Source: Mustelus asterias (taxonomy: Eukaryota). From it: DNA of 64,000 nucleotides. A program made the translations under genes and the position numbers. Each line of letters opens with the position of its first letter. The stretch's first letter is position 1. The notes beneath the pieces were generated by a model. That model worked only from the letters and a program-made list of their open reading frames with translations. It had not been told where the DNA came from and did not search any database. Where the stretch lies: assembly GCF_964213995.1 (NCBI RefSeq), contig NC_135801.1, positions 17,918,001-17,982,000 of the forward strand, given 5' to 3'. Positions 3,161 to 59,932 of the stretch are shown piece after piece.

Positions 3161-35201
<32,041 letters not shown>

Positions 35202-35364: not shown

Positions 35365-36857
35365 CATGATGTGGAGATGCCGGCGTTGGACTGGGGTCAA
35401 CACAGTGAGAAGCCTCACAACACCAGGTTAAAGCCCAACAGATTTATTTGGTAGCACAAGCTTTCGGAGTCTCGCTCCTTCTTCAGGTGAGTGAGGAGTT
35501 GTGTTCACAAACAGAGCATATACAGACACAAACTCAATTAACAAAATAATGGTTGGAATGCGAGTCTTTACAGGTAATCAAGTCTCAAAGGTACAGACAA
35601 TGTGAGTGGAGAGAGCGTTAAGCACAGGTTAAAGAGATGTGTATTGTCTCCAGACAGGACAGTTAGTGAGATTTTGCAAGCCAAGGCAAGTTGTGGGGGT
35701 TACAGATAGTGTGACATGAACCTAAGATTCCCAGTTGAGGCCATCCTCATGTGTGTGGAACTTGGCTATCAGTTTCTGCTCAGTGATTCTGTGCTGTCGT
35801 GTGTCGTGAAGGCCGCCTTGGAAAACGCTTACCCGAAGATCAGAGGCTGAATGCCTGTGACTGCTGAAGTGTTCCCCAACAGGAAGAGAACACTCTTGCC
35901 TGGTGGTTGTTGAGCGGTGTTCATTCACCCGTTGTCGTAGCGTCTGCATGGTCTCCCCAATGTACCATGCCATGGGACATCCTTTCCTGCAGCGTATCAA
36001 GTAGACAACGTTGGCCGAGTTGCAAGTGTATGTACCGTGTACCTGGTGGATGGTGTTCTCACGTGAGATGATGGCATCTGTGTCGATGATCCGGCACGTC
36101 TTGCAGAGGTTGCTGTGGCAGGGTTGTGTGGTGTCGTGGTCACTGTTCCCCTGAAGGCTGAGTAGTTTGCTGCGGACAATGGTCTGTTTGAGGTTGTGTG
36201 GTTGTTTGAAGGCAAGAAGTGGGGGTGTGGGGATGGCCTTGGCGAGATATTCGTCTTCATCGATGACATGTTGAAGGCTCCAGAGAAGATGTCGTAGCTT
36301 CTCTGCTCCGGGGAAGTACTGGACGACGAAGGGTACTCTGTCCACCGTGTCCCGTGTTTGTCTTCTGAGGAGGTCGGTGTGGTTTTTCGCTGTGGCACTT
36401 CGGAACTGTCGATCGATGTGTCGAGCGCCATATCCTGTTCTTATGAGGGCATCTTTCAGCGTCTGAAGGTGTCTGTTGCGATCCTCCTCATCTGAGCAGA
36501 TCCTGTGTATACAGAGGGCTTGTCCGTAGGGGATGGCTTCTTTAACATGTTTAAGGTGGAAGCTGGAGAAGTGGAGCATCGTGAGGTTATCCATGGGCTT
36601 GCGATACAGTGAAGTGCTGAGGTGACTGTCCTTGACAGAGATGTGTGTGTCCAAGAATACAACCGATTCTGGAGAGTAGTCCATGGTGAGTCTGATGGTG
36701 GGATGGAACTTGTTGATGTCATCATATAGTTGTTTCAGTGATTGTTCACCATTTGTCATCGATGTATCTAGTGTATAGCATCGGTTGAAGGTCCTGTGCG
36801 GTGAAGAGGTTTTGTTGCTGGTTTGATGACATCTTCATGCACAGGTTCGAACAAGAC
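35365..36857 (-). mobile_element. Penelope-like retroelement, 5'-truncated (RT C-terminus, GIY-YIG endonuclease, pLTR)
   Basis: RYIDD near 36760; ORF 35722-36759 with NVVYLIRC...WYIGET...LRQRVNEH GIY-YIG motif; pLTR contains a hammerhead. Confidence 0.92.
35455..35489 (-). ncRNA. Minimal type I hammerhead ribozyme in a PLE pLTR
   Basis: CAC CUGAAGA A GGAG-CGAGA-CUCC GAAA GC UU GUG. Confidence 0.8.
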
Positions 36858-37148
36858 CTAGAATTTAGCCGCACAGTCATAGGTGTATAAGGAGTATAGT
36901 AGGGGCTGAGAACACAGCCTTGTGGGGCACCGGAGTTGAGGATGATTGTGGAGGAGGTGTTGTTACCTATCCTTACTGATTGTGGTCTGTGAGTTGTTAG
37001 GAAGTTCAGGATCTAGTCGCAGAGGGAGGAGCCGAGGCCCAGGCCATGGAATTTGGAGATGAGTTTCGTGGGATTAATAGTTTGAAGGCTGAGCTGCGGT
37101 CAACAAAAAGGAGTCTGACATAGGTGTCCTTGTTATCTAGGTGTTCCA
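36858..37148 (-). mobile_element. Rex/L2-like LINE RT fragment
   Basis: [20 protein letters not shown] and GAPQGCVLSPLLYSLYT motifs. Confidence 0.8.
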
Positions 37149-37279
37149 GGACACTGTCTCTGGATATAAACTCACTCACAGAGAGGACACTGTCTCTTGA
37201 TGTAAACTCATTCATAAAGAATACTATCTCTCAATATAAACTCGTTCACTGAGGGAGAGAGGACACTATCTCTGGATAT
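37149..37279. repeat. ~36-bp tandem repeat with further pieces at 35343-35366 and 42066-42110
   Basis: Unit GGACACTGTCTCTGGATATAAACTCACTCACAGAGA. Confidence 0.75.
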
Positions 37280-38008
37280 TGTGATGTTAGTGTACCTTTA
37301 AGAGTTTTTAAAAATTCATGCTGACAGCCTTAAGTGCTTAGGCATTGTTGGGAAGGAGAAAAAAAAACTGTGGGCAGGTCAGGTGACAAGGATTGATTTC
37401 AGTTTTGAGCTACAGGCTAGAGTTTATTGCTTTTGTTTTGGAAAGGATAGCAAGCTCAAAAAGAAGTGTTTTACCCTTTCCTATTGATTAGTTGAAAACA
37501 AGATCTTGTTTTCCTAAAGGGTGAAAGTTTGTTGTTGTTGGGGACTAGACTAGACGCTCTGATGCTTTTGGGAAGCTGTCTTATCTTCAAACTATTTGGA
37601 ATGAACGGAGAGAACTGCAGACTTCAACCAAAGGACTCAAATTTCCATTATCATGTGAGTGCGTCTGTGCTGTGTTAAACCTGTAAAAATGTTTTTTTTA
37701 GTCTATGGGTTTTGGTTTAATTGGAACACAATGTCTAACTGTTAATGAACATATTCATTAACGGGTTATACATTATAGTGGTTTTGTTTCTTGTTTGTAA
37801 TTGATAAACCTTCTTGCTAATTTTATTACTATACACGTTGACTATATTCTTAAATAAACGTTTTGCTAAAAGCTCTCTAGTGGGTCTTTTGAATCACACC
37901 TGAAGTGAAACATCTCGTGCTTATCCTAACCAAATCCAAGATGCAAAACGTATGATTCAGGTGGGCCTCATAAAACACTTTTTGGAGTTTCTAACCTGAA
38001 CCATAACA
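37280..38008 (+). repeat. LTR of the Gypsy element
   Basis: Termini TGTGATG and CATAACA (imperfect inverted repeat); internal AATAAA. Confidence 0.75.
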
Positions 38009-38009
38009 T

Positions 38010-38286
38010 TTGATTTATTATTGTCACATGTATTGGCATACAGTGAAAAGTATTGTTTCTTGTGCGCTATACAGATAAAGTATACCATTCATAGAGAAGG
38101 AAAGGAGAGGGTGCAGAGTGTAGTGTTGCAGTCATGGCTGGGGTGTGGAGAGGGATCAGCTTGGTGCAGGGTGGGTCCATTCGGGAGTCTCATGGCAGCG
38201 GCGAAGAAGCTGTTCTTGAGTCGGTTGGTGCGTGACCTCAGACTTTTGTATCTTTCTCCCGATGGAAAAAGGTGGAAGAGAGAATG
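38010..38286 (-). mobile_element. Rex/L2-like LINE 3' end inserted just after the LTR
   Basis: RLKNSFF motif and 3'UTR shared with 45244-45490. Confidence 0.75.
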
Positions 38287-39659
38287 TCCCTCGTTGGGTT
38301 AAAATCTATATTTTTTGATTGATTTGGGATTATTGAACTCCAAGACAGTGTGTGGTGAGCATATTGGTGTTTTCTTTTCTGATGTTGTATTCAGATTTAA
38401 ATAGGAAGTGCCTTGTGGCATAAAGACTCTTTCAGAGGCTAAGAAGTTCTTGGGGGTGGAGGAAGCCACACAAGGTAGTTTACAAAAGGTGACTAAAACA
38501 AAACTTTTGGAATTGACAAAAACATTGCAGTTGACATTGCCTGACAGTGTATGGAAGCGGAAGATAATTGTGGCTATAGCTCAGCATTTAAAATTGCCAG
38601 AAACACAGTCAGAATCATTGGAAATGACTAGAACTCAATTACAAATGAAACAATCTGAACATGAAAAAGAATTAAAGCAGCTTGAATTCGAAATAAAGGA
38701 AAGAGAGAGGGTAACAAAAGAAAGGACAGCCCTAGCAACAAAAGGCCAAAGAAAGGGATCCAATTGCAGCAGAAAAAGCAAAAGAAAGGGAGGCTATTGC
38801 AGCAGAAAATGGGAGGGACAAAAAGCAAAAGAATTGAAACAGTTTGAATTACAACAAGAAAATAAATGAAACTGCTTGAATTTCAGGCAAGGGAAAAAGA
38901 GAGAGAATTGAAACTTCAGAAACTGGAAAGACAATTTGAACTTGAAATGTTAGAAGTGCAAATGCGTAAACTGTGAGGTTAGCAGCAGAAATGGCAGATG
39001 ATAATGAATTAATTCATAAATCAAAGTTTGGTTTCCGACATCAGTTTCAGCCAATGAGGGATAGAAACTGGGGAAAAGAGAAATATTCAGGTGGTAAAGG
39101 TAAAGAAGATCTTGTTGAAGATAATAAAGACAGTGTACCTCAGGTTAAAAAGGAAATACAGGAAGGTGGAAGAGAAATGAAAAGCCTCAAAATGTTTTCA
39201 CTGTAATAAATTAGGCCATGCAAAGTTGCAGTGGTGCTGGTTTAAGAAAAGCCCTGGGAAGACTGACCTGGTAAAACAGGATAAACCATTGGGGTTTGTT
39301 AAAGTAATAAAGGAAAGCCCAGTAGAAGCAAAAGAAGGTACAGCCTGGTCAGGAGTTGATTGATAAGAAAGTGCCGGATCTCTTTAAAGAATTTACTTAT
39401 GTGGATAAAGTTTACTCGTGTATACCAGGAGGAGTAGGTGAAGAAGTTAAAATTTTAAGAGATAAGGGAGCAAGTCAATTTTTGATGGTAAGAGGAGTTA
39501 TTGCCAGAAAAGGTAGTAATGCGTGAAATTCAAGGTGAGGAGTAGTGTTCCATAATACAAGGTAAGGTTGGAGAGTCCAGTGAAGAGAGATGAAGTGGTA
39601 GTAGGAGCAATAGAGAAATTGTCTTGTCCAGGAATACGGTTTATCTTGGCTAATGATAT

Positions 39660-40115
39660 AAGAACATAAGAACTAGGAGCAGGAGTAGGCCATCTGGCCC
39701 CTCGAGCCTGCTCCGCCATTCAATAAGATCATGGCTGATCTTTTTGTGGACTCAGCTCCACTTACCTGCCTGCTCACCATAACCCTTAATTCCCTTACTG
39801 TTCAAAAATGTATCTATCCTTGCCTTAAAAACATTCAGTGAGGTAGCCTCAACTGCTTCACTGGGCAGGGAATTCCACAGACTCATGACCTTTTGTGTGA
39901 AGAAATTCCTCCTCAACTCAGTCCTAAATCGGCTTCCCCTTATTTTGAGGCTATGCCCCCTAGTTCTAGTTTCACCCGCCAGTGGAAACAACTTCCCTGC
40001 TTCTTTCTTTTCTATTCTCTTCATAATCTTATGTTTCTATAAGATCTCCCCTCCTTCTTCTGAATTCCAAAGAGTATAGCCCCAGTCTACTCAGTCTGTC
40101 CTCATAAGCCAACCC
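39660..40115 (-). mobile_element. CR1 3' fragment inserted in the Gypsy element
   Basis: TRGHSLKIRG...RRNFFTQKV; TAAGAACA tail. Confidence 0.88.
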
Positions 40116-41531
40116 TATAGCTGGCTCACAGATGGGAGCAATGCCTACTGTGGTTGAAAAGCCAGTGGAGAATCAAACAACTAAGCCGGTGAAGCATGCA
40201 TATCCTGGGACCTTTCCTGAATGATATAGAAATAAAACAGTTGTAAGAGAAAGCATACATGGAAGAGGAATCTGAGTGCATACCAGAATGTTACTACCTT
40301 AAAAATGATGTCTTAATGAGGAAATGGAGACCTTTTACATATTCAGGCGGATGAAAAGTGGGTAGAAGTTCATCAAGTGGTATTGCTGGTAGGGTATAGA
40401 AAGGAGATGTTGTAAGTAGCACATGAGGTATCAGTAGGAGGTCACTTGGGAGTAAGGAAAACTCAAGCGAAAATACAAAAACATTTTTATTGACCTGGAC
40501 TGCATAAAGATGTAGTTACATTTTGTTAGTCATGTCACACATGTCAAGTGATAGGGAAACCTCAAGTGGTGATGAAACCAGCACCCTTGACGCCCATTCC
40601 AGCATTTGACGAATCATTTACCAGGGTCTCAATTGATTATGTGGGACCCCTTCCTAAAACGAAAAATCAATATCTGGGAATCAATATCTATTGACTATAA
40701 TGGAAGTTATGGATATCTTGGGAATAAAACAATTTAAATCTACTGCGTACCATCCAGAATCACGGAGGGCTAGAGTGGTGGCATTAAACTTTAAAGACAA
40801 TGTTGAGAGGTTATTGTCAAAATTTTCCAGAGAATTGGGATAAAGGAATTCATTTGTACTCTTTGCAATTAGGGATGCACCTAATGAGTCGTCAAAATTC
40901 AGTCCATTTGAATTGATTTTTGATTATGGGGTAAGGGGACCACTTAAATTGATTAAGGAGAAAGTGGTGAGTGAGTGTTCTGAGACTACATTATTGGGCT
41001 ACATGTCAAATTTTAGGGAAAGGTTGAATAGAGCAGGTGAATTGGCTAGACAACATTTAAAAGTAGCACAGCATGCGATGAAACAGGAAGCAGGGAAGAA
41101 TTCAAAAATTTGTAGTTTTGCTAGTGGGGATAAATTCTTAGTACTGCTACCAGTGGTAGGTGAACCTTTAAAAGCAAGGTTTAGTCGGCCTTATGAAATT
41201 GAAAGGAAATTGAGTGAGGTAAATTATTTGATAAGAACATCAGAGAGAAGGAAAACTCTTGTGTGTATGTGAATATACTTAAAAGGTATTTTGATTGGGA
41301 AGGAGAGCAAAAGGAGGAGGTTTTAGTGGTTATAACTCAGAGGGAAGAACCAAATCCAGATGACTCTGAATTTGACATTCCCCAAGTTAAGTTGGATAAC
41401 GAGGATGTTATTAAAAATTGGGATAAATTATTGAGTAACCTTGCAGAGAACAATCGAAGTGATCTGAAAGAGTTATTAATATCACATGGACAAGTATGTG
41501 GGAATAAGTTGGGAAGAACTAGAATGTAGTA

Positions 41532-41829
41532 GGGGCAGCATGGTGGCACAGTGGTTAGCACTGCTGTCTCATAGCGCCAGGGACCCGGGTTTGATTCCCG
41601 GCTTGGGTCACTGTCTGTGTGGAGTTTGCACATTCTCCCCGTGTCTGTGTGGGTTTCCTCTGGGTGCTCCAGTTTCCTCCCACAGTCTGAAAGACGTGCT
41701 GGTTAGGTGCATGGACCCGAACAGGCGCTGGAGTGTGGCGACGTTAATTTCACAGTAACTTCATTGCAGTGTCAGTGTAAGCCTTACTTGTGACTAATAA
41801 ATTAACTTTAACTTTTACTTTTAACTTTA
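41532..41829 (+). mobile_element. HE1/V-type SINE, tail B, inside the Gypsy element
   Basis: Flanked by a TAGAATG repeat; ACTTT(T)A-repeat end. Confidence 0.9.
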
Positions 41830-42294
41830 GAATGGTTATACATGGTGCAGATGTAGGAAATGCTGTTCCAATTAAGCAACCTCCTTGACTTAACCCTCTA
41901 AAATTGGCACAGGTTCAAAAGCAGTTTGAAAGTATGCTTCAAAATGACATAACTGAAGTGAGTGGCACTCACCCATAGTGATGGTACCCAACGATTGTGT
42001 GTGGGCTGTAGGAAAGTTAAAGCAGTTACGAAATCAGACTCTTATCCTATTTCACAGAGGGTGCGAAGACACTATCTCTGGATATATACTCACTCCGAGG
42101 ACACTCTCACACTCCAAAAATGTGCTAGTTAGGTTGATTGGCCATGCCAAATTGCCCCTTTAGTGTCAGGGGTCCTGGGGTGGGGGGGGAGGGTTTCAAG
42201 GATAGGACCTGGTTGGGATTGTTGTCAGTGCAGGCTCGATAGGTCAAATGGCCTCCTCCTTCACTATAGGGATTCTATGATTTTTTTTTTCCAT

Positions 42295-46024: not shown

Positions 46025-46115
46025 ATCCAACCAATCAGAACCATGATAGCAGCAACCAATCAGAGTCTGCATTGATTCAGCCAATCAGAACAGAGCTCCG
46101 TGCAGCCAATCGGGG
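46025..46115 (+). promoter_or_regulatory. THAP1-like promoter with four NF-Y-type CCAAT boxes
   Basis: CCAATC at 46031, 46056, 46081 and 46106. Confidence 0.8.
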
Positions 46116-46167
46116 TGTGGTTTGTTTTCGGGTGGGCGAGTTGGGCAGAGGGAAAGGTTTTGGTGTC

Positions 46168-46238
46168 ATGGTGTTGTCCTGTTCGGCCTATGGCTGCAAG
46201 AATCGCTACGATAAGGACCGGGGAGTTTCCTTCCACAG
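46168..46238 (+). CDS. THAP1: THAP1-like exon 1
   Basis: 71 nt, CAG|GTAGGG donor. Confidence 0.93.
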
Positions 46239-49200
46239 GTAGGGAGCGCCTGGCTGCTGACACTCTCTCTCTTTCCGTGGTCTGGGCGCCACCTAAGAGC
46301 GATAAAGCTCCGGGGGCAGCCTTTAAACAGCGGTTGAGGGGGTTGGGGGGAGGGGGTTGTGGGGAGGGGGTTGTGGGGAGGGGGTTGGGGGGAGGGGGTT
46401 GGGGGGAGGGGGTTGAGGGGAGGGGGTTGGGGGGAGGGGTTGGTGGGGGGTTGGTGGGGGGTGGGGAGGGGGTTGAGGGGAGGGGGGGTGGGGAGGGGGT
46501 TGAGGGGAGGGGGAGGGGGGGTGGGGAGGGGGTTGAGGGGAGGGGGTTGAGGGGAGGGGGAGGGGGGGTGGGGAGGGGGAGGGGGGGTGGGGAGGGGGAG
46601 GGGGAGGGGGGGTGGGGAGGGGGAGGGGGGGTGGGGAGGGGGGGTGGGGAGGGGGGAGGGGGGGTGGGGAGGGGGAGGGGGGGTGGGGAGGGGGAGGGGG
46701 GGTGGGGAGGGGGAGGGGGGAGGGGGAGGGGGGGTGGGGAGGGGGGGTGGGGAGGGGGAGGGGGGGTGGGGAGGGGGGGTGGGGAGGGGGAGGGGGGGTG
46801 GGGAGGGGGAGGGGGGGTGGGGAGGGGGAGGGGGGGTGGGGAGGGGGTTGAGGGGAGGGGGGGTGGGGAGGGGGTTGAGGGGAGGGGGAGGGGGGGTGGG
46901 GGGTGGGGAGGGGGAGGGGGGTGGGGAGGGGGAGGTTGTGGGGGGGGCTGAGGGGAGGGGAGAGGGTGATGGGATGGAGAAGGGGTGTTGATGGGGTGGA
47001 GGTGGAAGGGAGGGAGATTTGTGAGGAGCAGGGGTGTTGGGACGAGGAAGAATGACATTTAGGGGAGGGAGTTGAGGCAGGTGTGAGGAAGAGGTTTCAG
47101 GAGGGGAGCTGAAGAGCAAAGACAGAAATTGCTGGAAAATCTCAGCAGGCCTGACATCTGTGGAGAGAGAACAGAACTAATGTTTTGAGCCAGGATGACC
47201 CTTCGTCAGAGCTGAATTGAGGAGGACAGGGTTAGGCTGGGTGAAGGGTTTTGGGGAAGGGAGTTTCACGGGAAAGGTGATGTGGGGATATGGAACGGGG
47301 TTTCAGGGAATGGGAACGGGCGGCGTTCAGGCGAGAAGCTTTTCTGGGCGGTGTTAGTTGTGATCAAGTGAAAAGATTGCTGTTGTTATAAAATACAAAC
47401 TGTTTGCAACTTGCCTTTTGGCCTAATTTGGTAATACATGCACACTGAATTGAACTATTTCCTGTTGTCGGTCTGTCTCAGTGGTGATACTTTTGTCTTT
47501 GAGTCAGGCTGCAGAGACTGGAAGCACATAATCCAATACGACTGATACACACTCTCTCAGTACTGCACAGAAATATGATTCAACAAACTGGTTGAAATGT
47601 TGGACCTAAGCTGGACTTCTCTTTGGGTGGTTGAGATTCCGCAGCCCTATCTGAACTTAGAGTGGCTGAGTTCTTCTGGTGTCCTGGCTAATATTTCGTC
47701 CCTCAACCAACACCTAAAAACACTGATTTTCTGATCTTTCTGCTCACAGCATGTCCATCAGAATCAAACGAAGGAGGTAGGGGGAGATGGTTGGGGTGGG
47801 ATTGATGCTGCTGCTTAAGTGGAAGCATGCTGATTTGATTTTAAACACAGTGGACATGACTCCCAGTCAAAACTACAATGAGAGTGCATTTTCTGATCTA
47901 TAAAGACTACTTTGTGAAACTTGCATCTACCCACTGCAGAAGTTGCATCAGCTCTTGCACTCTTCTCCTGTTTGGTGCCTACGTTAATCTCCTGGAGTGA
48001 CATAGTCATATCATGTCCTGCCCTCCTGTATTGCAGATGCAAGTTCCAGCCTCCGCCAATAGTTCTTGCACCTGCACCATATGAGTATGACTGTGTTGTC
48101 TGAATTTGAGCAGAGTGTTCTTGAAATATTGGTCTCTGAAAAGCAATAGCCCCAAGCCTCAGCTGATGTTTGGTTTTTTTTGTCACTTCAAGGGAGGGCA
48201 GAAGAATTGTTCCTCCTGCTCGGTTGATGTTCTGTGATCCACCCAACAATATCTGCTTTGGTCAGTAATGCTGATTTCCCTGTAGGGTGCTGCACTGCCA
48301 GAGGTGCTGTGTTTTAGTTGAGAGTTTAAATTGAGGCTTCATGCCATTGGATTTTTTAGGTGGATGTAAAAGATCCCATGGCACTATTTGGGAAAACAGC
48401 AGACAAGTTTTGATGTCCTCGGCAATATTTCTTGCTCAACCAATCTTGCTGTGCATTCACTCTCCCAAGTTCAGCCTGCCAGCTTGTTTCATTACTTTTT
48501 GTGGATCATGCAACTGGCTATAGTACTTTTTAAGCGTAAAATACTTGACATTTTTAAGTTGGAGTTTAAATCTAGGAAGTTCTGACATGGTGTAACACCG
48601 AGCCTCTTACTGAAAGAGAACTGTGGGGAGGTGTAGAACAGCCACAGAGGAGCTGCACAGCAGTTACTTCCTAGGTTTAGGGCTAGCCAAATGAACATGC
48701 AGTTGAATATAGTAGTTATGAGGACTGGCCAGTCTGTTAAACGAGACCTCAGTCCACAGGGGGCTACATGGCCCCCATCATAGAAATCATAGAAACCCTA
48801 CAGTGCAGAAGGAGGCCATTCGGCCCATCGAGTCTGCACCGACCACAATCCCACCCAGGCCCTACCCCCACATATTTTACCCGCTAATCCCTCTAACCTA
48901 CGCATCCCAGGACTCTAAGGGGCAATTTTTTTTTAACCTGGCCAATCAACCTAACCCGCACATCTTTGGACTGTGGGAGGAAACCGGAGCACCCGGAGGA
49001 AACCCACGCAGACACGAGGAGAATGTGCAAACTCCACACAGACAGTGACCCGAGCCGGGAATCGAACCCGGGACCCTGGAGCTGTGAAGCAGCAGTGCTA
49101 ACCACTGTGCTACCGTGCCGCCCTGGCATCGCACACAATACTCTAATATTTAGAATTAAAATCTCACCTTTTTGCATACTCGTGGAGACTGACATCATCG

Positions 49201-52200
49201 TGTACCCTGATGCATGTGGGTGGCTAGGTGAATGTGCAGAAGAATTACATTGACTGCAATTAAGATCTTCCCTCCTAACAATATTTCTAAAACCTCTTTA
49301 AAGGTTTCCCCTGAAACGACCAGAGCTCTGTAAGAAGTGGCTGGCTGCAGTCAGGCGACGTAATTTTACACCCACCAAAAACAGCAATCTTTGCTCAGAA
49401 CATTTCACGTTGGACTGTTTTAGAAAGAACTGTAACAACAAAATACTAGAAGAAAATGCTGTACCGTCCATTTTTTGCTTTACCCGACCAAATCAACAGT
49501 CAAAGGTAACTTTTTTTTGTTATTCGATTACAATGCAGAATAAGTTGATTAATATTGATCCAAACAAAATATGCTGGAAAATCTCAGCAGGTCTGACAAC
49601 ACATGTGGAGAAGGAATAGAGCTAGTGTTTTCAGTCTGGGTGACTTTGTCAGGGCAGATAACTAACTTTAAATGTAGCGCTGTCATTTTATAAGGTACCT
49701 TATACAGATTAATACACAGTGGTTCCAACCCATTCTATAGTTTTAATTAAAATTTTGATTGCATTGCTAAGTCTATGTAGAATGTAATGCATAATGATCC
49801 TATCATATTAAGATCCAACATCAGAAATTTGACACACACACCCATGAAATTAGCTATCACTTAAGCTATTCTTGATAGTGTTATTTGACTAAAAGTTAGC
49901 TAGGTCTCTCTTGTTTGGACGGTCTCATGGATTCTTTAACATTTACCTGAAAAATTAGAACAGAGAAATGACATTGGTTTAGTGGGCTGGAATCTGTTAG
50001 AGTTGGGCAACTTGATTTCTGCTCAGTTTGGACTTTTTCCTGAGCCCTTCAGCTCAAAGCCTTTTTGCTCTGTAACTACAAACTGAGAATGGTGCATCAG
50101 AGACCCCACTGCCCAACAGGACCATCAGTGTATCACCTTAACCAATAAGATTTAAGGATTGAAAAATGAACATAGGAAGGAGAGAGAATTAGAGTGGTTG
50201 AATTTGTCAAATAAGGTACAGAAAGAGGAATAGAAAGGAAATTAAAGGTTGGATTAAGAGTGAGAGGGGGATGTTAATGTACACCCGCTATTCAAAAAGG
50301 GAGGTAGAGAGAAAACAGGGAACTATAGATCAGTGAGCCTAACGTCATTAGTAGGAAAGTTGCTCGAGTACATTATCAAGGATTTCATAACACAGCATTT
50401 GGAAAGCAGTGGTGTAATCAGATAAAGTCAGCATGGATTTACAAATGGGAAATCATGCTTGTAATGGCATTCTTGTAAGTAGTGGAGATGACCAGGGAGA
50501 ACCAGTGGATTTATTTAGACTTTCGGAAGGCTTTCGACAAGGTCTCACTTAGCAGACTACAATGTGAAGTTAAAGCGCACAGGTGGCAGGTAATATCTTG
50601 AGATGGATAGAAAGCTGGTTAGCAGACAGGAAGCAGAATTGAAATAAATGGGTCTTTTTCTAATTGGCAGGCAGTGACTAAGTGGGGTACTGCAGGGATC
50701 TGTGCTAGGACCCCAACTGTTCACATTATTATTATAGAATCCCTGCAGTGCAGAAGGAGGCTATTCAACCCATCAAGACTGTACCAATGACAATCCAACT
50801 CAGGTCCTATCCTTGTAACCCCACGTATTTACCCTGCACAGCATAATGCCCCTGACACTAAGGGGCAATTTAGTATGGCCAATCAACCTAACCTGCACAT
50901 CTTTGGACTGTGGGAAGAAACCGGAGCATGTGGAGGAAACTGATGCAGACACCGGGAGAACATGCAGACTCCACAGTCACCTGAGGCCAGAATCGAAACT
51001 GGGTCCCTGGCACTGTGAGGCAGCAGTGCTAACCACTGTGCCACCGTGCTGTCTTTATATATTATATAACATGATATTATAATGATTTGGATGAGGCAAC
51101 TAAATGTATTATCTCAAGTTGGGTGGGAGGGTGAACTGTGAGGAGGATGCAGAGATGCTTCAGCATGATTTGGACAGGCTAAATGAGTGGGCAAATGCAT
51201 GGCAGATACTGTAAAATGTGGATAAATATGAGGTTATCCACTTCAGTTGCAAAAATAGGAATGCAAATTATTATTTGAATGGGCGTAAATTGAGAGAGGT
51301 GGATGCTCAGCGAGACCTTGGTGTCCTTGTGTATCAGTCGGTGAAAGTGAGTAGGCAGTAAAGAAGGCAAATGATATGTTGGCCTTCATAGTGAGAAGAG
51401 TTGAGTACAGGAACGGGGATGTTTTACTGCAATTGTATCGGGTGTTGGTGAGGCCACACCAAAGAATGAAATGAGACTCCACACTTTAAATTGTTCATTT
51501 TTTGCATCAGAGAAGTTGATTGGCAGTCATTTAGACTTATTGTACATTTATTACTTGACTAAACTTTCTGTGGCAAGTTTACTGGGCAAATGTAACAAAT
51601 TCATGAAACTCGGGGGAGAATAAAGGGGAAACGTTGTGTTCGCAGAGTGGTGCAAATGATCCAGCAATGCACTTGTGCCTCTTCACAAATTGTTGGCCAA
51701 TTTGTACATTAATAATGGAAGCGCAGTCCTCCTATCGATGGAGAATGCTATCTGTATTGCCCAGCCGCGTCTGTCCAAACTCTGTACTAAATACTTTTAC
51801 GTGGGAAGCAAAGGCACCACCGTTGTCCAAAACCAAGTGCACCTTAGCAACACTGGCATAAACATTGAACATCTAGTACACATTGTTAATTTACATGATT
51901 TTTATTAAAGAAGCAATGGCAGCACTTTTAAATCGCTTGTTCCTGTAGATGGAAAGAAAACATGTTAAATTTGAATTTTTCTTTCCCTCTCTTCTCTTTC
52001 CCTCCCCTCCCTCCCCTCCCTCCCCTCCCTCCCCTCCCTCCCCTCCCTCCCCTCCCTCCCCTCCCCTCCCCTCCCCTCCCCTCCCCTCCTCTCGTTCCTC
52101 AGCTTTCATTAATGGGTGTTGAGGTCACTTATAAAAAGCTTCCCTGTCTGAGTTTAACTAACTGGAGCAAGGATTGTTCCAAATACTCTGGTCAGTATGT

Positions 52201-54091
52201 CTCTCAGCCAGATATATGCAAGAACAACAATATGAGTTAGTTTGTACTGCAAATAGTAATTTAGTTCCAATCTGTACAATGTCTTCAGTTGATTTGATCC
52301 CACTTTTCCTTTATCTTAAGTGGGCAATCATTTTGCAGCTGGCAATTCATTTGTATCTCTTTGAATGTGTTAATCTTCAAACTCAGTCATGTAAATAAAC
52401 CTTCACTTTGTCTATTAAGAAAACTTATTTCACAGATTTGCCTTTCTCCCAATATATTTGCTGCTTCTAGTGCTAATGACTGAGTAGCGTTTTGGATAAA
52501 GAATAACATGCACCCCTCTCAACTGCTGTGCTTGGGTTGAGTTAAATGCTAGACTAGGATACAGAGTCATCGTAAACCTCACAGCAAAATACATTCTCCT
52601 GTCAACTGAATCAGGAGAAAATAGCCTGCATTTGACTTGCGTACAGGCAAAAGCTGCTAGTGTAGCTGATTTATACCTAAAGAAATGCATAGAAGCAACA
52701 ATTCACAATACTAACAGAATAATAAAACTTGTATGTAAAAACTGGGTGGAATGCTTTAAAAAACATGCTATTTTCCAGCTTCTGTGTACTTAGATATGCA
52801 TGTAATTTGTTTGGCAGATACCTGGGGAGCTCTGTCCTTCTAACCCATGTAAAGGTAAAGTCGCATAGTCCCAGATGACCATAAACTGACCGGTTGTGTT
52901 TTAACCTGAGGATCACCACACCTCAGGCGAGAGGCAAGGTTGAGAATAACCTCAGCCTGTACAGGAATTGAACTCACACTGTTGGCATCGCTCTGCATCA
53001 CTAACCAGCTATCCAGCCAATTGAGCTAAACTGACACTGAAGACCGCAAGAAAATCTCTAGTATTATGAAGAAGTTTTTTAACCTTTTTGAAGTGCAATT
53101 TCTTTCAAGTAAACATAAAGGTTAAATTATTAACACCTCACGTACAGCATACCCCTGGTGCAGAATAGGCTGCTTGTTTTGACACTGTTAGATGAGGAAA
53201 GCCATGACCTCAGTTCGTTGGATCTTTTTTACACTGGGAAAATGTAGGCTTTGGGGTGATTGACTTGTGAGCCTGAAAGTGTGTGTATCTGTTTGGTCAT
53301 CCTTTTTGAATATGGTCACCACATTAACCTTCTGATACCTTCCCAGGAAACTAATCTTTCCTCATCTCTAAACACATTTTGTTGTCTGACCACACCAGCA
53401 TTTAACCTAACCAAAGATGTGCCGAAACTAAACTTTTCTTTTGCTATTCCCAAAATCTCTGTTGATTTCAAATGGAAAAGCATAACCTTGAATTTGAAAG
53501 TGTTTAACTCAAAACTTGTTGGGTCAGACATTTTGATAAAACGTGCTTTAATTTGTATTTTTATGTACCTTGTCCACCATCTTCTACTTTAACATTGAAA
53601 TATAGCATTAAAAAATTAGGAAAAGTTTATACTTTGAGGAAATAACTGCAGTAGATCTCTTTTTACAAATGTGATTCAAAGCTTTAAATCTGCTATGACT
53701 GAATATTAAAAGTATGTGTTCAGGAGTGTTAATCTATTAATTATTATATTGATAGAAGTTAGAAATGGCAAAGGCAAGCGAACAACCTCGTGCAGCAGAA
53801 GAAATAACAGAGGATGCTGAATTAAAGCAAGCAAATGGTCTGCTAACTGTTTACGATCACAGCTACAGTGTAGGTGATGCGTGTTTGCAAAAGAAAAAGA
53901 TTCAGCAGTTGGAAGAACAGAATGAGAAGCTGAAAAAGAAACTGAAATTCTTGCAGCAGAAATCTCGCCGTCAAGAGCAACGCTTGCAGCGAATGAAGAA
54001 GTTATTACAGGAACTTAACACACAAGAGATATTACCACATCAGAGCTGTGTACTGTTACATGATACTTTGTATGAAGTGATTAAAGTTTAA
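46168..54091 (+). CDS. THAP1: THAP domain-containing protein 1-like, three coding exons, 202 aa
   Basis: [26 protein letters not shown]...LCSEHF...NAVPSIF THAP zinc finger; DHSY HCF1-binding motif; C-terminal coiled coil; exon layout as in THAP1. Ortholog versus paralog unresolved. Confidence 0.85.
46333..46965 (+). repeat. G-tract low-complexity repeat in THAP1-like intron 1
   Basis: Continuous G4-G7 runs separated by A, T, TT or short T/A linkers. Confidence 0.95.
47114..47213 (-). mobile_element. ~100-nt hammerhead-headed element, second copy
   Basis: AGCU CUGACGA A GGGUC-AUCCU-GGCUC AAAA CA UU AGUU with the same tail; flanking GAGCTGAA repeat. Confidence 0.75.
48285..48510 (+). mobile_element. 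Deu-domain SINE remnant (AmnSINE1/SacSINE1-like)
   Basis: GGTGGATGTAAAAGATCCCATGGCACTATTT core; related remnants at ~22670-23030 (-), 32330-32990 (-) and 47470-47740 (+). Confidence 0.65.
48778..49122 (-). mobile_element. HE1/V-type SINE, tail A
   Basis: Full length and CpG-rich, so probably young. Confidence 0.92.
49304..49505 (+). CDS. THAP1: THAP1-like exon 2
   Basis: 202 nt, [25 protein letters not shown]...QQSK, AG/GT flanks. Confidence 0.93.
49561..49655 (-). mobile_element. ~100-nt hammerhead-headed element, third and more decayed copy
   Basis: Same tail (GACCTGCTGAGATTTTCCAGCA) and a decayed CUGA-stem-GAAA head. Confidence 0.6.
50270..51460 (+). mobile_element. Decayed CR1 RT fragment interrupted by a SINE
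   Basis: [13 protein letters not shown] and QGSVLGP remnants. Confidence 0.8.
50733..51050 (-). mobile_element. HE1/V-type SINE, tail A
   Basis: Inserted in a CR1. Confidence 0.85.
52000..52090 (+). repeat. Polypyrimidine (CCCCT/CCCT)n simple repeat
   Basis: Seen directly. Confidence 0.9.
52850..53035 (-). mobile_element. Short tRNA-derived SINE of a different family
   Basis: TTAGCTCAATTGG...GTTCAATTCC head; homologous copy at 61741-61920. Confidence 0.7.
53756..54091 (+). CDS. THAP1: THAP1-like exon 3
   Basis: TAG|AAG acceptor (NAGNAG, alternative start 53759); DHSY motif and coiled coil; TAA stop; AATAAA at 54270. Confidence 0.88.
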   Translation, partial: KLEMAKASEQPRAAEEITEDAELKQANGLLTVYDHSYSVGDACLQKKKIQQLEEQNEKLKKKLKFLQQKSRRQEQRLQRMKKLLQELNTQEILPHQSCVLLHDTLYEVIKV

Positions 54092-54993
54092 ATGTAAAAA
54101 TATTTACTAATACAACACTTACTAAATGACAGGTAGTGTGTAGAAACATAACCAATTATCTTTACTACCCAGATTCACAGGAAGGGGATAACTAGCAAAA
54201 TGCCTCGAAGGCTCACTGCTAGGACAATTGTTTACATTGTACATAAATAATTTTAAATAGAAACAGCTGAATAAATTTGCTGTTATATGGGGTCGGGAAC
54301 TAACGCAAATAACACAAGCAGACCATCTACAGAGGAATATGTGACATTGCTTTTTGGGTGTTCTAAATTTGTAAGTACAAAGTGACGAGATTGGAGAAAT
54401 GGATCAGCCAGTGAAGATACAAGATGAAAAAGCATTCGTAGGACATGACAGACCTAGGGATACTGATAGAAAGTTCACTCAAACAATCGCCATGAGACAA
54501 CAATGAAGACAAACTGGGTCTTGGCATATATAGCTAAAGACATGGAATACAAGTTAATGTTGGTGATGGTGTGGTTTCAGTCCTGCTTGAAGTGTGCGTA
54601 TAGCGGAGGATATCCTGGCTTTGTATACTAAACGCAGCTACACCAATATTCGAGATTGGGAATCGTAGCTAACAGAGGCAAGTGAAGAAACTGGGGATGC
54701 TTATGCTGCAGAAGAAACTTGACAGAACCATAAAGTTTTCAAGCTTCTAAAGGCTACAGGTAACATTGCTCAACACCACAAACTTCAGCTAGGTGGCACA
54801 AAGTCAATATCAGAAAAGTGGAAATTAACATGCGGTTTAGACTTCGTCTTGTGTGAAAGAGAACCTGCCACCAAAAACTACATTGTTACTGTCCATGACT
54901 ATCTAATCTAATTTCCTTCTCTTGCTTTTTCCCCCGTACAATGTATTGTGCCTCTTTTGCAAGCAACCATCTGGTTCCTTTTTTAGAAGTAAA

Positions 54994-55297
54994 AAAGTTT
55001 ATTTATTTATTAGTCATAGTAGGCTTACATTAACACCGCAATGAAGTTACTGTGAAAGTCCCCTAGTCGCCACACTCCGGTGCTTTTTCGGGTACACTGA
55101 GGGAGAATTTAGTGTGGCCAATGCACCTAACCAGCACATCTTTTGGACTGTGGGAGGAAACCGGAACACCCGGAGGAAACCCACACAGGCATGGGGAGAA
55201 AGTGCAGACTCCATACAGTCACTCAAGCTGGGAATCAAACTTGGGTCCCTGGTGCTGTGAGGCAGCAGTGCTAACCGCTGTAGTACCGTGCTGCCCC
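54994..55297 (-). mobile_element. HE1/V-type SINE, tail B
   Basis: Full length. Confidence 0.88.
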
Positions 55298-56629
55298 AGA
55301 TCAATTCAACTGTTCTTTGTCAGAGAATTTGACATTCTAGCCACCCACTGATTTTTTTTTTCTAACTTCCCTTAATTATTTTGGTGAACCTTTAATTTAT
55401 ATCCTTTTATCACTCAGTAATTACAACCTATCAATACAGTTTTTGCAATCATTGAATGGCTTTGTCATGTCACCCCTTAATCTCTCAATTCTACTAAAAG
55501 AAAATAAGAAATCTCAATTTTTTAAGTCTTTGTAATTGTAACCCCTCATCCATTGCAGTGAATTGTTCCTTTCTTATATCCTTCCTATATGACGGGGTGT
55601 CAAAATTGTAGACATCCCAATTTTAAGTTTTGTACAAGTTCAATATTACCTCCTTGCATTTGTACTTTGTCTCTGGATACAAAACCAAGGACTGCATTTG
55701 CATGCCTTTAGTGGTTCTACGTACTTGCACTTCCTACCTTTAATGATCAATGCTACCTTTTGAATCTTGTCCTTCACAGTATGTTTCCTTATTCTGGGTT
55801 TGAGGAAAACCAGAGGAGAATATAGTTTGCATTTGAACTTTGGAATTGCAGTGGTCGCTTTGGTCTGTAAAGTCTTAACCACATTTTCAAGTTGTATATA
55901 AAATAATCTTTGCACAGTTAGCTGAGCCACTTGATTCTTTCCGTAATATCGTGGCTAAAAAATGTAATGCAATGTAGTATCTCAGAAACCAAGTTTCTGG
56001 ACAGAACTGCAGCTGCAAAAAATTGGTAAAATTCTAAAATAACCATGGAATAAAAACACTTTGATATTCTGTCACCCAAATGTCTTGATTATCTCTGTTA
56101 TGTGTAATTTTATACCATGGGGAGGAATGGTAAGTGTAAGGGAAAGTCTGATTATGGGGTTAGAATGTGACATGACTTTGGGTGATGTTAGATATTTTCT
56201 CGAGTGTTTACTAATCACTCGTAAATCAATTTCTGATTTTGTATTTTCCGTGATGTCTAGATGAGCAATGATAAGATCCACAGTTTGAACGATGAACTGA
56301 TAATCTATCCACCAGCCACCAGAATATGTCATGTCACCAAGTAATACTCAAGGCTGGATAAACAAATACTTCTACCAAATCTAGAAGCAGGCTTTGAAAT
56401 ACGAGGTGGTTTTATTTGCATCAGGTAGATGAACAGTCTTAATGCAGTGGAAAAAGTTATTTATGCTCCTCAAATACACACCTGCTCTTCAAATACATAC
56501 AAGATGCAGTTTCCTCTCCAAACATGGATTTTTAAGTTAGTTTATTTACTACAAACTCAGTCTAGCCTGTCACCCTAGTTGGGCTACAACAATTACAGCA
56601 TTTAGCATTACAACTGGTCGCTGTAATAT

Positions 56630-57020
56630 TCATAGAATCCCTACAGTGCAGAAGGAGGCCATTTGGCCCATTGGGTCGCACCGACAACAATCCCACCCAG
56701 GCCCTATACCACAACCCCACATGTTTACTTCACTAATCCCTCTAAGCTACACATCCTGGGACACTAATGGGCAATTTAGCATAGCCAATCAACCTAACCT
56801 GCACATTGGCCCATCAAATCTGCACCAACTCTCTAACAGAGTATCCCACCCAGACCTTCTCTGCCCTATCCCCTCAACCCCACATATTTACCCCACTAAT
56901 CCCCCTACCTTACACATCCTGGGACACTAAGGGGCAATTTAGCATTGCCAATCCACCTAACCAGCACCTCTTTGGACCGTGGGAGGTGATCGGAGCACCT
57001 GGAGCAAACCCATGCAGACA
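56630..57020 (-). mobile_element. Two tandem HE1-type SINE 3' halves, tail A
   Basis: Duplicated tail and body segments. Confidence 0.8.
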
Positions 57021-57539
57021 CACTTGCGCTTACTGAGGAGTGATTTATTTGAGCTGCATACAATTGAGGGGCCAGGATAGGAGGGACCTGTTTCCAATGG
57101 GAGACATAACCAGGAGATAGAGCTTTAAAGTAATTGCAGAGATTAGAGTACAGTTTGGAAGAGAAATTAAGCTAAGTGGTGTTGGGGATCTTGAACTCTA
57201 CTTGAAAGGGGGGGGACCCTCACTGTCTTTAAAAAATGTACTCAATACCGTAACCAGAACAAGAGCTAGAACGTGGAATTAAGCTGGATAACTACCTACT
57301 GTGCCCTAAATTTGCTACTAGAATCATAGAATGTAGACAGCACAAAAAGAGACCATTTGGTCCATCATGTTGGTGTTGGCCAAAAAAACTGTAATCCCAC
57401 CTCTCCAGCATTTGGCATGCAAGATTATGGCACTTGAGGTGCATATGCAGACACCTTTTAAATGAGTTGAGAGTTTCTGTCTCTACCACTCTTTCTGGAA
57501 AAAGATACAAAAGCCTGAAAGCACATACCAACCAACTTT

Positions 57540-57835
57540 AGGGTGGCATGGTGGCACAGTGGTTAGCACTGCTGCCTCACAGCACTAGGGACCCAGGTTT
57601 GATTCCAGCTTGGGTCAGTGTGTGGAGTCTGCATGTTCTCCCCGTGTCTGCATGGGTTTCCTCCAGGTGTTCTGGTTTCCTCCCACAGTCCGAAAGATGT
57701 GCTGGTTAGATGCATTGACCATGATAAATTCTCCCTCAGTAGCTGAACAGACGCCGGAGTGTGACGACTAGGGGATCCTCACGGTAACTTCATTACAGGG
57801 TTAATGTAAGCCTACGTGTGACACTAATAAATAAA
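57540..57835 (+). mobile_element. HE1/V-type SINE, tail B
   Basis: Full length. Confidence 0.88.
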
Positions 57836-58612
57836 ACTCAAGAACAGCTTCTTTCCTGCCGCCATCAGACTTTTGAATGGACCTATCTCACAAGTTGATC
57901 TTTTTCTGCCCCCTAGAAATGACTGTACGATTCTGTACCATCTCGATCTTTTTTAAAACTGTCCTAAACCACTGAAACCATACAGGGTCCACCCCTGGTG
58001 CTTCAGGGTGATCACTGTTTTGCGCTTGGCGAGTCTGGTGTATGTCACCTAGCCCCTGATGACATTCTCCAGGAAAACCTTCAGCACCCTGCGGACCTCC
58101 TTGTACATCAGGCCAGAGATGCACTTAACGCTGCTACAGAGAACCAGGTCTCGGATGGCCAGTTTGGTGATGCCCTGAATGTTGTCGCGGAGCACCTTGC
58201 AGTGCCGCTTGGCTCTCGCATTTGCCCAGCCCCTTGTTGCCTTTCTGCCTTTCCTTCTGCCCTACATGATCAACACTGAGCTATCAACAAGCTGTTCTGT
58301 ATCCTCTCCTTTCCTTCTCCCCTATATACTTTGTAGTTTCTCCGTGTCTGTGTGGTGCTCCGGTTCCCTCCCACAAGTCCAAAGATGTGTGGGTTAGGTT
58401 GATTGTCCATGCTAAATTTCCCCTTAGTGTCAGGGGGAAATAGCAGGGTAAATGTGTGGGGTTACGGGAATAGGGTGGGATTGTGGTCAGTACAGACTCA
58501 ATGGGCTGAATGGCTTCCTTCTGTACTGTAGGGATTCTATTCTATGGTATGCCTGTATAGCGCAAGAAACAATACTTCTAAATATATACCAATACATGTG
58601 ACGATAATAAAT
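57836..58612 (+). mobile_element. Rex/L2-like 3' end split by the H4 retrocopy and a SINE
   Basis: Pieces 57836-57944, 58295-58335 and 58545-58612 are colinear with 45270-45490. Confidence 0.7.
57945..58294 (-). pseudogene. Histone H4 processed pseudogene
   Basis: Decayed H4 frame ([17 protein letters not shown]...[11 protein letters not shown]...AKRKTV...TLYGF) with stops and deletions; ATG at 58267; degenerate 14-bp TSD. Confidence 0.9.
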
Positions 58613-58738
58613 CGTGCAGGCTACATTGTGAGCAAGCTCAGACAGACCATGGGCAAACCTGTTCTGTGGAGTGACAAGAGCAGTAAGAAGTCTAACAACA
58701 CCAGCTTAAAGTCCAACAGGTTTATTTGGTAGCAAAAA

Positions 58739-58775
58739 CCACTAGCTTTCGGAACGTTGTTCCTTCGTCAGGTGG
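58739..58775 (-). ncRNA. Minimal type I hammerhead ribozyme in a PLE pLTR
   Basis: CCAC CUGACGA A GGAAC-AAC-GUUCC GAAA GC UA GUGG. Confidence 0.85.
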
Positions 58776-59895
58776 ATGGGAGTTCTGATCACAAACAGGG
58801 CACAAAGACACAAACTCAATTTACATAAATAATGATTGGAATGTGAGTCTTTACAGCTAATCAAGTCTTAAAGGTACAGACAATGTGAGTGGAGAGAGCA
58901 TTTGGCACCAGTTAAAAAGATGAGTATTGTTTCCAGACAGGATAGTGAGATTTTGCAAGTCCAGGCAAGTTGTGGGGGTTACAGATAGTGTGACGTGAAC
59001 CCAAGATCCCGGTTGAGGCTGTCCTCATGTGTGCGGAGCTTGGCTATCAGTTTCTGCTCAGCGACTCTGCATTGTCGTGTGTCGTGAACGCTTACCTGAA
59101 GATCAGAGGCTGAATGCCCGTGACCGCTGAAGTGCTCCCCAACAGGAAGAGAACAGTCTTGCCTGGTGATTGTCAAGCGATGTTCATTCACCCGTTGTCA
59201 TAGCGTATGCATGGTTTCCCCAATGTACCATGCCTCGGGACATCCTTTCCTGCAACGTATGTACCGTGTACCTGGTGGATGGTGTTCCCACGAGAGATGA
59301 TGGTGTTCCCACGTGAGAACGGATGCCATCATCTCACGTGGGAACACCATCCACCAGGTACACGGTACATACACTTGCAACTCGGCCAATGTTGTCTACC
59401 TGATACGCTGCAGGAAAGGATGTCCCGAGGCATGGTACATTGGGGAGACCATGCAGAAGCTACGACAACGGATGAATGAACACCGCTCGACAATCACCAG
59501 GCAAGACTGTTCTCTTCCACTTCAGCGGTCACGGGCATTCAGCCTCTGATCTTCGGGTAAGCGTTCTCCAAGGCGGCCTTCACGACACACAACAGCGCAG
59601 AGTCGCTGAGCAGAAACTGATAGCCAAGTTCCGCACACATGAGGACAGCCTCAACCGGGATCTTGGGTTCATGTCACACTATCTGTAACCCCCAGGACTT
59701 GCCTCGGCTTGCAAAATCTCACTAACTGTCCTGTCTGGAGACAATACACATCTCTTTAACCTATGCTTAACCCTTTCTCCACTCACATTGGCTGTACCTT
59801 TAAGACTTGATTAGCTGTAAAGATTCACATTCCAATCGTTATTCCTGTAAATTGAGTTTGTGCCTTTGTGCCCTGTTTGTGATCAGAACTCCCAC

Positions 59896-59932
59896 TCACC
59901 TGACGAAGGAACAGCGTTCCGAAAGCTCGTGG
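59896..59932 (+). ncRNA. Minimal type I hammerhead ribozyme in a PLE pLTR
   Basis: UCAC CUGACGA A GGAAC-AGC-GUUCC GAAA GC UC GUGG; predicted cut after C59928. Confidence 0.85.

Follow-up and report, generated by a model that had tools for sequence, protein, structure and literature searches.

Penelope-like elements (PLEs) carry minimal hammerhead motifs whose function has been stated as still unclear (PMC8557442), and three such motifs in a 64,000-nt window of the Mustelus asterias genome (NC_135801.1, positions 17,918,001 to 17,982,000) raise the question of whether ribozymes of this kind cut RNA in vivo, for which published RNA-seq has been unable to provide evidence. A generic type I descriptor scan of the window returned exactly three sites, at 35455..35489 and 58739..58775 on the minus strand and at 59896..59932 on the plus strand (copies 1, 2 and 3, respectively), identical in position and strand to the hammerheads proposed in an initial annotation of this DNA. 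Across 200 dinucleotide shuffles, the descriptor matched 0.09 times per window by chance, 0.01 times when a palindromic stem III was required, and never when a stem II of at least 4 bp was required as well. An Rfam scan returned no hammerhead among 16 matches at E-values up to 5.

All three motifs contain the intact CUGANGA and GAAA core that had been claimed for them, together with a stem II that varies yet stays paired (GGAG/CUCC, 4 bp, in copy 1; GGAAC/GUUCC, 5 bp, in copies 2 and 3) and a one-base-pair stem III with palindromic AGCU (A15.1-U16.1 around GC). The stem I assigned earlier, CAC/GUG, describes the 3 bp of copy 1 but not the 4 bp of copies 2 and 3, and the proposed UH GUGG cut context needs amendment, since copy 1 reads GUGC after the cut and N17 differs among the copies (U in copy 1, A in copy 2, C in copy 3). 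Also overlooked was a bulged, unpaired A that all three copies have between A9 and G10.1. The predicted cuts fall between 35458 and 35457 (copy 1, minus strand), 58743 and 58742 (copy 2, minus strand), and 59928 and 59929 (copy 3, plus strand); here, +1 denotes the first base downstream of the cut (59929 in copy 3), and negative positions lie upstream. According to the text of PMC4209133, an unpaired base between positions 9 and 10.1 is a hallmark of PLE minimal hammerheads, which further share with these motifs the type I topology, intact core, G10.1-C11.1 pair, short helix I, palindromic 15.2-16.2 positions, pseudo-LTR location, covariation across families, and opposite-strand pairs 100-700 bp apart. 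Supported by the descriptor scan, an intact relative (L122) and the element coordinates, the initial identification stands, and the window holds three minimal type I hammerheads, each within a pseudo-LTR of a very abundant PLE. Motifs of this kind have been published before (Cervera and De la Pena 2014), and there is nothing unusual about the present ones; the new finding is that a few percent of genomic copies of the family have their first base right at the predicted cut.

The intact copy L122 encodes a single 892-aa ORF containing a reverse transcriptase (RT), a C-terminal GIY-YIG domain and a Cys linker, with a Pfam RVT_1 match above cut-off (E = 1.7e-7) and a GIY-YIG match just under it (E = 2e-4; 22.0 bits against a cut-off of 22.6). 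An ORF remnant in the window (35722..36834, minus strand) contains the RT thumb region, a CxxxxCxxC linker and a GIY-YIG-type motif, and Pfam matched neither RT nor GIY-YIG on this remnant alone, both being matched on L122. The linker reads CHSNLCKTC in the remnant, L121 and L122, and fits the CX2-5CxxC linker found between RT and endonuclease in the Neptune clade (Craig et al. 2021, PMC8557442). No PDB sequence matched the intact ORF. Judged from its sequence, the host element is probably Neptune-type, a placement based on the linker, which Nematis also has, and on Neptune and Poseidon being the vertebrate clades (10.64898/2026.07.22.740005). Within the repeat unit, 243 nt separate the stop codon from the cut site and a further 97 nt separate the cut site from the start codon, which is found at 60026..60028 (plus strand; +98 to +100), where long-tailed copies end and where the L122 ORF starts. 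Exact core matches number 112,670 genome-wide, over tenfold the about 9,000 copies given for Xenopus tropicalis in PMC4209133, where no shark was found among text passages and two supplementary files.

Copy 1 lies in a 5′-truncated insertion (35363..36857, minus strand; 90% identical to L122 over 1444 nt by BLAST) made up of the 3′ half of the ORF, the 3′ UTR, the ribozyme, and a long tail ending at the start codon. Copies 2 and 3 occupy a head-to-head insertion whose left arm (58681..59303, minus strand) has its 3′ end at a short start site (about +62) and whose right arm (59319..60028, plus strand) has its 3′ end at a long start site (about +100), the 5′ ends of the arms being 7 nt apart in element coordinates. 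A single 13-bp target-site duplication with 2 mismatches (58669..58681 and 60028-60040) is common to both arms, so what had been described as three copies comprises three motifs but two insertion events. The window also holds a ribozyme-less mini insertion of head-to-head tails (7029..7195) with a perfect 12-bp target-site duplication, situated in a CR1-type LINE within a POLR2B intron. Comparison with the right subfamily places its plus arm at +1 and its minus arm at +2 with a 4-nt filler (alternatively at -7 with a 3-nt deletion), and a start of both arms exactly at +1 was thus discarded. A second mini insertion (34333..34497), with a perfect 11-bp target-site duplication, consists of a short minus arm, an AGCT palindrome join, and a plus arm running about 45 nt into the ORF, after which the tail restarts.

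The suggestion in the initial annotation that these copies may still be active is not borne out. The window insertions are 5′-truncated and 84-90% identical to the intact copy (10-16% diverged), and in a read-through transcript of the head-to-head unit, which folds into a long duplex, 36/37 and 34/37 ribozyme bases of copies 2 and 3 pair with the opposite arm, making their activity unlikely. For copy 1, stem I is 3 bp long and no sense-oriented partner lies close by. Every catalytic base is intact in all three copies and monomer folds retain stems I and II, but dead copies commonly keep an intact core, as the genome-wide matches indicate. We consider it very improbable that these three copies are active ribozymes today; they are dead by-products of old 5′-truncated insertions, and present activity is unlikely.

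Conservation across the family was assessed in 82 copies selected blind to the core, and the outcome agrees with the functional constraint anticipated for the motif, in that the core is kept (77/81 to 82/82 per position), positions 7 and 17 are free, and the stems vary with compensation. The unpaired A between positions 9 and 10.1 is present in 81/81 copies and the AGCU palindrome in 80-81/82 per base. Pair 10.1-11.1 is GC in 74 and GU in 7 of 81 copies (G10.1-C11.1 pairs in 22/22 haplotypes), and a helix I pair is CG in 43, UA in 32 and UG in 3 of 79. Changes on both sides are seen in 4/9 pairs, reflecting few independent events in columns that travel with other subfamily markers. The structure count gave 93.4% paired, a value reached by 0/500 shuffles. 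Loop 2 differs in length and sequence between subfamilies. Minimum-energy dimer folds did not produce a hammerhead dimer, and the AGCU duplex by itself was computed at about -4 kcal/mol.

Insertions of the element occur as head-to-head pairs with 10-16 bp target-site duplications, and 33 of the 37 pairs inside a repeat of at least 10 bp combine one long and one short arm, in keeping with the inverted partners and one-sided 30-40 nt tail typical of endonuclease-bearing PLEs. Both arms derive from the same subfamily in 74/76 pairs (2-3 cases are mixed), and arm 5′ ends are correlated within pairs (rho 0.92, 37 pairs), most often stopping at the ribozyme. Simple fold-back copying of the long arm is ruled out by short arms that often extend further 5′, and the use of two different RNAs per insertion was not shown. 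The arrangement resembles that of the green anole Poseidon element PAc (Frangieh et al. 2024, PMC11167929), in which two internal RT start sites bound a 30-40 nt tail, both target strands are primed, the ribozyme lies upstream of the start sites, and uncut RNA is the dominant template. By analogy with the anole enzyme, reverse transcription would begin inside the RNA at about +100 and +62, one start per nicked target strand, and would leave the observed pair with one long and one short tail. In PAc the cut falls 26 nt inside the ORF (PMC11167929), whereas here it lies ahead of the ORF and the long start site is the start codon.

Genomic 5′ ends were then counted by subfamily around the predicted cut. 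Within the main subfamily (N17 = U, 51,074 copies), counts at +1, -1, -2, -4 and +2 gave 835, 305, 298, 104 and 284 junctions, respectively. Under identical filters, estimated by eye from the first 100 listed rows, +1 exceeded -1 by about 626 to 113 and -4 by about 58 to 7, whereas with a matched last base the excess of +1 over +2 is only about two-fold. Inspection of the first 40 of the 835 rows found 40/40 true junctions, none retaining the upstream core, and 34 with a repeat of at least 10 bp at the expected ends; in L292, a lone +1 to +103 insert sits directly between 10-bp duplications. By eye, 74 of 100 listed +1 contexts differ in this subfamily. Some junctions have been re-copied, as shown by the same junction at two target sites (L186, L187). 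None of 39 tails from evenly spaced stretches totalling 530 kb starts at +1, and a script called 3/100 consecutive tails there. A bigger 5′-end hot zone lies at -31 to -60, six-fold over -61 to -250, away from the cut. The ATGG subfamily has 238 ends at +1 without a comparison count and was therefore left out of the argument. In antisense, stem I and the start of the core resemble a splice donor (CAG|GTGAGT), which we take as coincidence; a junction pile-up at this donor-like site was not found.

Some 95% of copies continue across the intact site, so cleavage is not the main route to templates. The initial annotation's proposal that the family processes its RNA by self-cleavage survives in part: the +1 pile-up suggests that the family probably did self-cleave, but as a minority route. 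Cutting of a minority of templates by the ribozyme in vivo is the best reading of these genomic junctions, not a proven one. The enzyme would mostly read through an intact ribozyme; in roughly 2-5% of events it may encounter a template that has previously been severed at the scissile bond, and running off the 5′ end of that template would give an insertion whose first element base is +1, commonly accompanied by a small number of filler bases. Structure and literature suggest that cleavage would need two RNAs paired via AGCU, probably helped by the element's protein. We hold this account as a whole, a high-copy Neptune-type PLE with dimer-type hammerheads and minority template cleavage leaving +1 insertions, to be probable. 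With somewhat less assurance, we favour viewing the thousands of insertions that start at +1 as a fossil record of a minimal PLE hammerhead cutting germ-line RNA in or just before the transposition complex, its 5′-OH product serving as template; in the boldest form, the AGCU dimer would hold two RNAs antiparallel for two reverse transcriptases. Such a scaffold would explain both the same-subfamily arms and the near-identical stops. Partners of +1 arms that stop at the cut were dropped as evidence that both RNAs were cut, because arm ends correlate in all pairs.

A rival view accepts the motif as real and selected but traces the +1 ends to RT stalling or microhomology joins at the stem I/III edge, without any cleaved RNA. 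In N17 = U subfamilies the last base of the palindrome AAGCUU is -1, and a stall would therefore yield +1 too; palindrome joins are also common elsewhere. The nearby hairpin of the main subfamily, however, begins at +3 rather than +1, and 21/26 partner joins in the first 40 rows have filler bases, not overlaps. For the N17 = C subfamily a stall at the AGCU helix predicts -1, and its unrelated junctions favour +1 (about 32 against about 8 at -1 by eye; binomial p 0.0002), an advantage that shrinks to 21 versus 19 if every T before +1 is taken as a decayed CpG. One third of the N17 = C rows at +1 (about 34 of 100) are joins guided by stem I complementarity, for which no cut is needed. The N17 = A group leans to -1 (by eye, about 185 against about 134 at +1), and cleavage with A-rich fillers would predict about 66 at -1. 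We consider stalling or microhomology an unlikely explanation of the pile-up, though the foremost of the alternatives.

An RNA 5′ end of other origin, such as a capped transcription start or a host nuclease cut, would also place ends at +1. A G precedes +1 in about 45 of 100 listed rows (by eye), the pattern expected from a copied cap, but many such Gs derive from a partner arm ending AAAAG, a G stands before only 6/32 unrelated N17 = C junctions, and the position matches the catalytic site in subfamilies with different downstream sequence; we judge this source highly improbable. Cleavage might conversely be the rule, with both ends of each unit RNA cleaved and then joined into a circle by re-ligation (the PMC4209133 model), read-through copies coming from circles and +1 ends being unligated leftovers. 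Circles are compatible with all counts obtained, strict core conservation suggests a needed function, and with start sites 62-100 nt past the cut a linear cut RNA yields only a 100-nt copy. Tandem read-through transcripts account for the same copies, however, and anole PAc in vitro used mainly uncut RNA, core mutants still being inserted (PMC11167929), which makes circles a rather doubtful general route compared with minority cleavage of linear templates.

No in vivo evidence of cleavage is reported in the text of PMC4209133, and in RNA-seq of PAc no ends were found at the cut (PMC11167929), whereas genomic copies here have excess ends there. With more than 100,000 intact motifs, in vivo cutting becomes a DNA-only count of 5′ ends against position 17, by subfamily, which is applicable to any PLE-rich genome and yields an approximate figure for the share of templates cleaved in vivo, a few percent, along with named subfamilies to assay. 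Genomic 5′ junctions likewise record the cut site, with variable joins, for the HDV-like ribozyme of R2 (Eickbush et al. 2013, PMC3774820), a different ribozyme class and element in which the cut sets the full-length 5′ end; here, the cut would yield only short dead copies, in a minority of events. Non-LTR retrozymes (PMC7229834; 10.64898/2026.07.22.740005) also carry type I hammerheads, some dimeric, and are PLE-linked, but they consist of short tandem repeats that are non-coding and hold canonical ribozymes. A retrozyme identity was rejected for the copies in the window, which are fragments of a coding element and lie dispersed or inverted. Retrozymes reach up to 120,000 copies in axolotl (PMC7229834; 10.64898/2026.07.22.740005).

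A generic type I hammerhead descriptor matched exactly three sites in the 64 kb, at 35455-35489 (-; copy 1), 58739-58775 (-; copy 2), and 59896-59932 (+; copy 3), which are the motifs described in the initial annotation. The chance level from 200 dinucleotide shuffles was 0.09 matches per window, or 0.01 if stem III is palindromic. Each copy contains, in order, stem I, CUGANGA, one extra A, stem II, GAAA, GC, U, N17 (the base before the predicted cut; U in copy 1, A in copy 2, and C in copy 3), and stem I; the earlier description stands apart from the extra A after CUGANGA, which it overlooked. An Rfam scan of the window returned 16 matches at E up to 5, none of them a hammerhead, and the three copies therefore fall outside the curated Rfam models. 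The identification is real and correctly named, and its kind is already known: PMC4209133 describes minimal hammerheads with a bulged base, a G10.1-C11.1 pair, and a palindromic helix III in pseudo-LTRs (pLTRs) of Penelope-like elements (PLEs), and no shark is named in its main-text portion and two supplementary files.

A frame of 370 codons lies upstream of copy 1 and, searched alone, gave no RT or GIY-YIG profile match. A piece of this frame queried against the 3.68-Gb genome yielded 22,742 candidates, of which 150 were scored, some with open frames of >900 codons. The intact reference copy outside the window, L122, encodes 892 aa counted from the start codon, with RVT_1 above the cut-off, GIY-YIG slightly under it, and the linker CHSNLCKTC. 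Linkers of this type mark Neptune or Nematis PLEs (PMC8557442), and Neptune and Poseidon are the vertebrate clades reported in 10.64898/2026.07.22.740005, where one cartilaginous fish was sampled. Among named sequences, the closest relatives come from sharks (81-94% identity), making a shark the probable host. The predicted cut lies 243 nt past the stop codon and 97 nt ahead of the start codon. By exact matching, a 31-nt word from the tail (the part downstream of the cut) occurs 165,414 times genome-wide, and the core pattern 112,670 times (reversed control, 0).

A single head-to-head insertion (58681-60028) carries copies 2 and 3, one on each arm, and is flanked by a 13-bp duplication in which 2 positions mismatch; copy 1 belongs to a separate insertion from which the first ORF half is missing. 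Identity to L122 is 90% for the copy 1 insertion and 88% and 84% for the two arms of the pair. A transcript across the copy 2/3 pair folds as a long duplex that takes up 36/37 (plus strand) or 34/37 (minus strand) ribozyme bases. The suggestion that these copies may still be active is a weak claim; the part deserving follow-up is the genomic footprint of past cleavage. Two ribozyme-less mini insertions are also present, at 7029-7195 (perfect 12-bp duplication) and 34333-34497 (perfect 11-bp duplication). Three further possible helices lie in or around copy 3: an upstream hairpin at 59872-59885 whose variants are paired, a hairpin at 59929-59942 (+1 to +14) in competition with stem I, and, recognised by eye, a long-range tail stem of 8 bp (59954-59961 with 60001-60008) that the minimum-energy fold lacks.

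Conservation was assessed in 82 ribozyme-spanning copies selected blind to the core; their sources were a run of 100 consecutive tail matches and a set of 39 tails in evenly spaced stretches. Catalytic positions are 95-100% invariant, two CpG sites being lowest, in contrast to the variable positions N7 (C 42, A 31, T 7) and N17 (T 50, A 28, C 1). In stem I, the first pair reads CG in 43, UA in 32, and UG in 3 (n=79), and every stem II pair is kept in at least 79/81. Across 22 hand-picked haplotypes, 93.4% of cells are paired, a value matched by 0/500 shuffles; since the changes travel with other subfamily markers, the covariation represents few events, not dozens. Excess conservation of the core over the rest of the pLTR, which the initial annotation had named as its test, was found against the upstream flank only, because the tail is as invariant as the core, in part since it was the sampling anchor.

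Positions are numbered so that +1 immediately follows the predicted cut (59929 in copy 3) and N17 is -1. Small samples gave a weak signal, with starts at +1 in 3/100 (script-called) and 0/39. Junctions were then counted genome-wide using a pattern with three non-element bases ahead of a given start, which gave a clearer picture. In the largest subfamily (51,074 copies; N17 = U in 79/79), these numbered 835 at +1, 305 at -1, 298 at -2, 104 at -4, and 284 at +2. Filters were unequal between positions, so for each position the first 100 rows listed were tallied by eye under shared filters, giving estimates of ~626 at +1 versus ~113 at -1 and ~58 at +1 versus ~7 at -4; the excess over +2 is about two-fold, the +2 count including spill from other subfamilies. 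Of the 835 rows, the first 40 (39 loci) were inspected: none retains an upstream core, 26 are joined to a partner arm (21/26 with filler bases), and 34 have a repeat of at least 10 bp at the expected ends. One locus (L292) is a lone insert from +1 to +103 with 10-bp duplications directly on both sides. One amplified master cannot explain the peak, because 74/100 listed contexts are distinct. The junctions are not all independent, since L186 and L187, head-to-head units 1.8 kb apart, share one junction and private changes at two target sites, with different target duplications and with long and short tails swapped.

The pile-up at +1 might instead reflect stalling at the palindrome rather than a cut RNA. 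Where N17 = U, -1 is the last base of the palindrome AAGCUU and stalling also predicts +1; where N17 is C or A, stalling predicts -1. The N17 = C group has 100 rows at +1 and 17 at -1, all of them listed. After by-eye sorting, in which ~34 internal indels or variants were removed and ~34 joins guided by stem I complementarity set aside at +1, and ~9 variants removed at -1, 32 remain at +1 versus 8 at -1 (p 0.0002), against stalling; on the most extreme assumption, with CpG decay behind every preceding T, the counts become 21 versus 19. In the N17 = A group, true junctions make up only 34 of the first 100 rows at +1, or ~134 of all 393, and ~185 of the 201 rows at -1; A-rich fillers and overlaps blur these counts. 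This is more at -1 than cleavage predicts, and counts against it. The excess of 5′ ends at +1 is present in two of three N17 groups.

The 3′ ends of insertions lie at ~+100 or ~+62. In 33/37 short head-to-head pairs a 10-16 bp repeat surrounds the unit, in a search with ends free to vary and without a chance control, and in those 33 one arm is long and the other short without exception. Arms agree in subfamily in 74/76 typed pairs (41% expected), and their 5′ ends are correlated (rho 0.92, 37 pairs). Per base, 5′ ends are six-fold denser at -31 to -60 than at -61 to -250; the denser stretch holds 27 of the 77 at risk, and 17 of these 27 are joined to the partner arm, often at a small palindrome or hairpin. 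The long and short paired arms agree with the anole PLE, in which priming occurs on both target strands from two internal sites (PMC11167929), and with the inverted architecture, tailed at one end, that is already known (PMC8557442). Alongside the motif, its conservation and geometry, the two 3′ ends, and the paired arms, all directly observed, we propose that target-primed synthesis would begin at two internal sites, that the RNA may be cleaved as a dimer via AGCU with help from protein, and that synthesis would run off the 5′ end of the cut RNA. The +1 share in the largest subfamily is 835/51,074 (1.6%), or ~5% allowing for the filter; the majority of templates were uncut or re-ligated, two states that look alike in DNA.

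In the literature, dimer cleavage is summarised (PMC6765202), cleavage in vitro is protein-assisted with RNA-seq lacking ends at the site (PMC11167929), PLE hammerhead function is called unclear (PMC8557442), and R2 offers a precedent for junctions that record a ribozyme cut (PMC3774820). A search that took in few subscription papers and not Repbase turned up neither a description of PLE copies that begin at the hammerhead cut nor one of this shark family.

Several further features accompany these elements. Differing subfamily markers on the two arms of three pairs (L209, L243, L152) hint at two RNAs or a template switch. Some arms reach the first ORF codons past the long start site (34389-34497 in the window; L308 and L309 elsewhere), which shows that templates extended past that site and that further template jumps took place. 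An older subfamily (L031-L060) has a spacer 7 nt shorter and consists mainly of ribozyme-plus-tail pieces starting at -20 to -43; these starts may reflect where transcription begins, or the pieces may be a short non-autonomous form. A fragment of a decayed LINE reverse transcriptase (36858-37153, -) borders the copy 1 element on its 5′ side, and the left flank of that element is found again at ~37154. A template switch onto another RNA may be the cause, but this flank is repeated locally.

The stretch 3158-28155 (-) holds exons of POLR2B that code for residues 7-1027 of the RNA polymerase II subunit RPB2; the first short exon was not found, and the 7029-7195 insertion lies inside an intron. 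Weak Rfam matches to a microRNA at 7055-7133 were rejected as head-to-head PLE tails. The copy 2/3 unit ends directly at the edge of a CpG island (60030-61000) that has a GC content of 0.66-0.69 and contains repeats of GC-box and CRE-like units as well as a plus-strand frame of 172 codons, and lies next to a decayed reading frame (~57950-58270, -) that we take to be histone H4-like. Tandem arrays are found at 46070-47100 (G-rich, 14-nt period) and 34450-34760 (48-nt).
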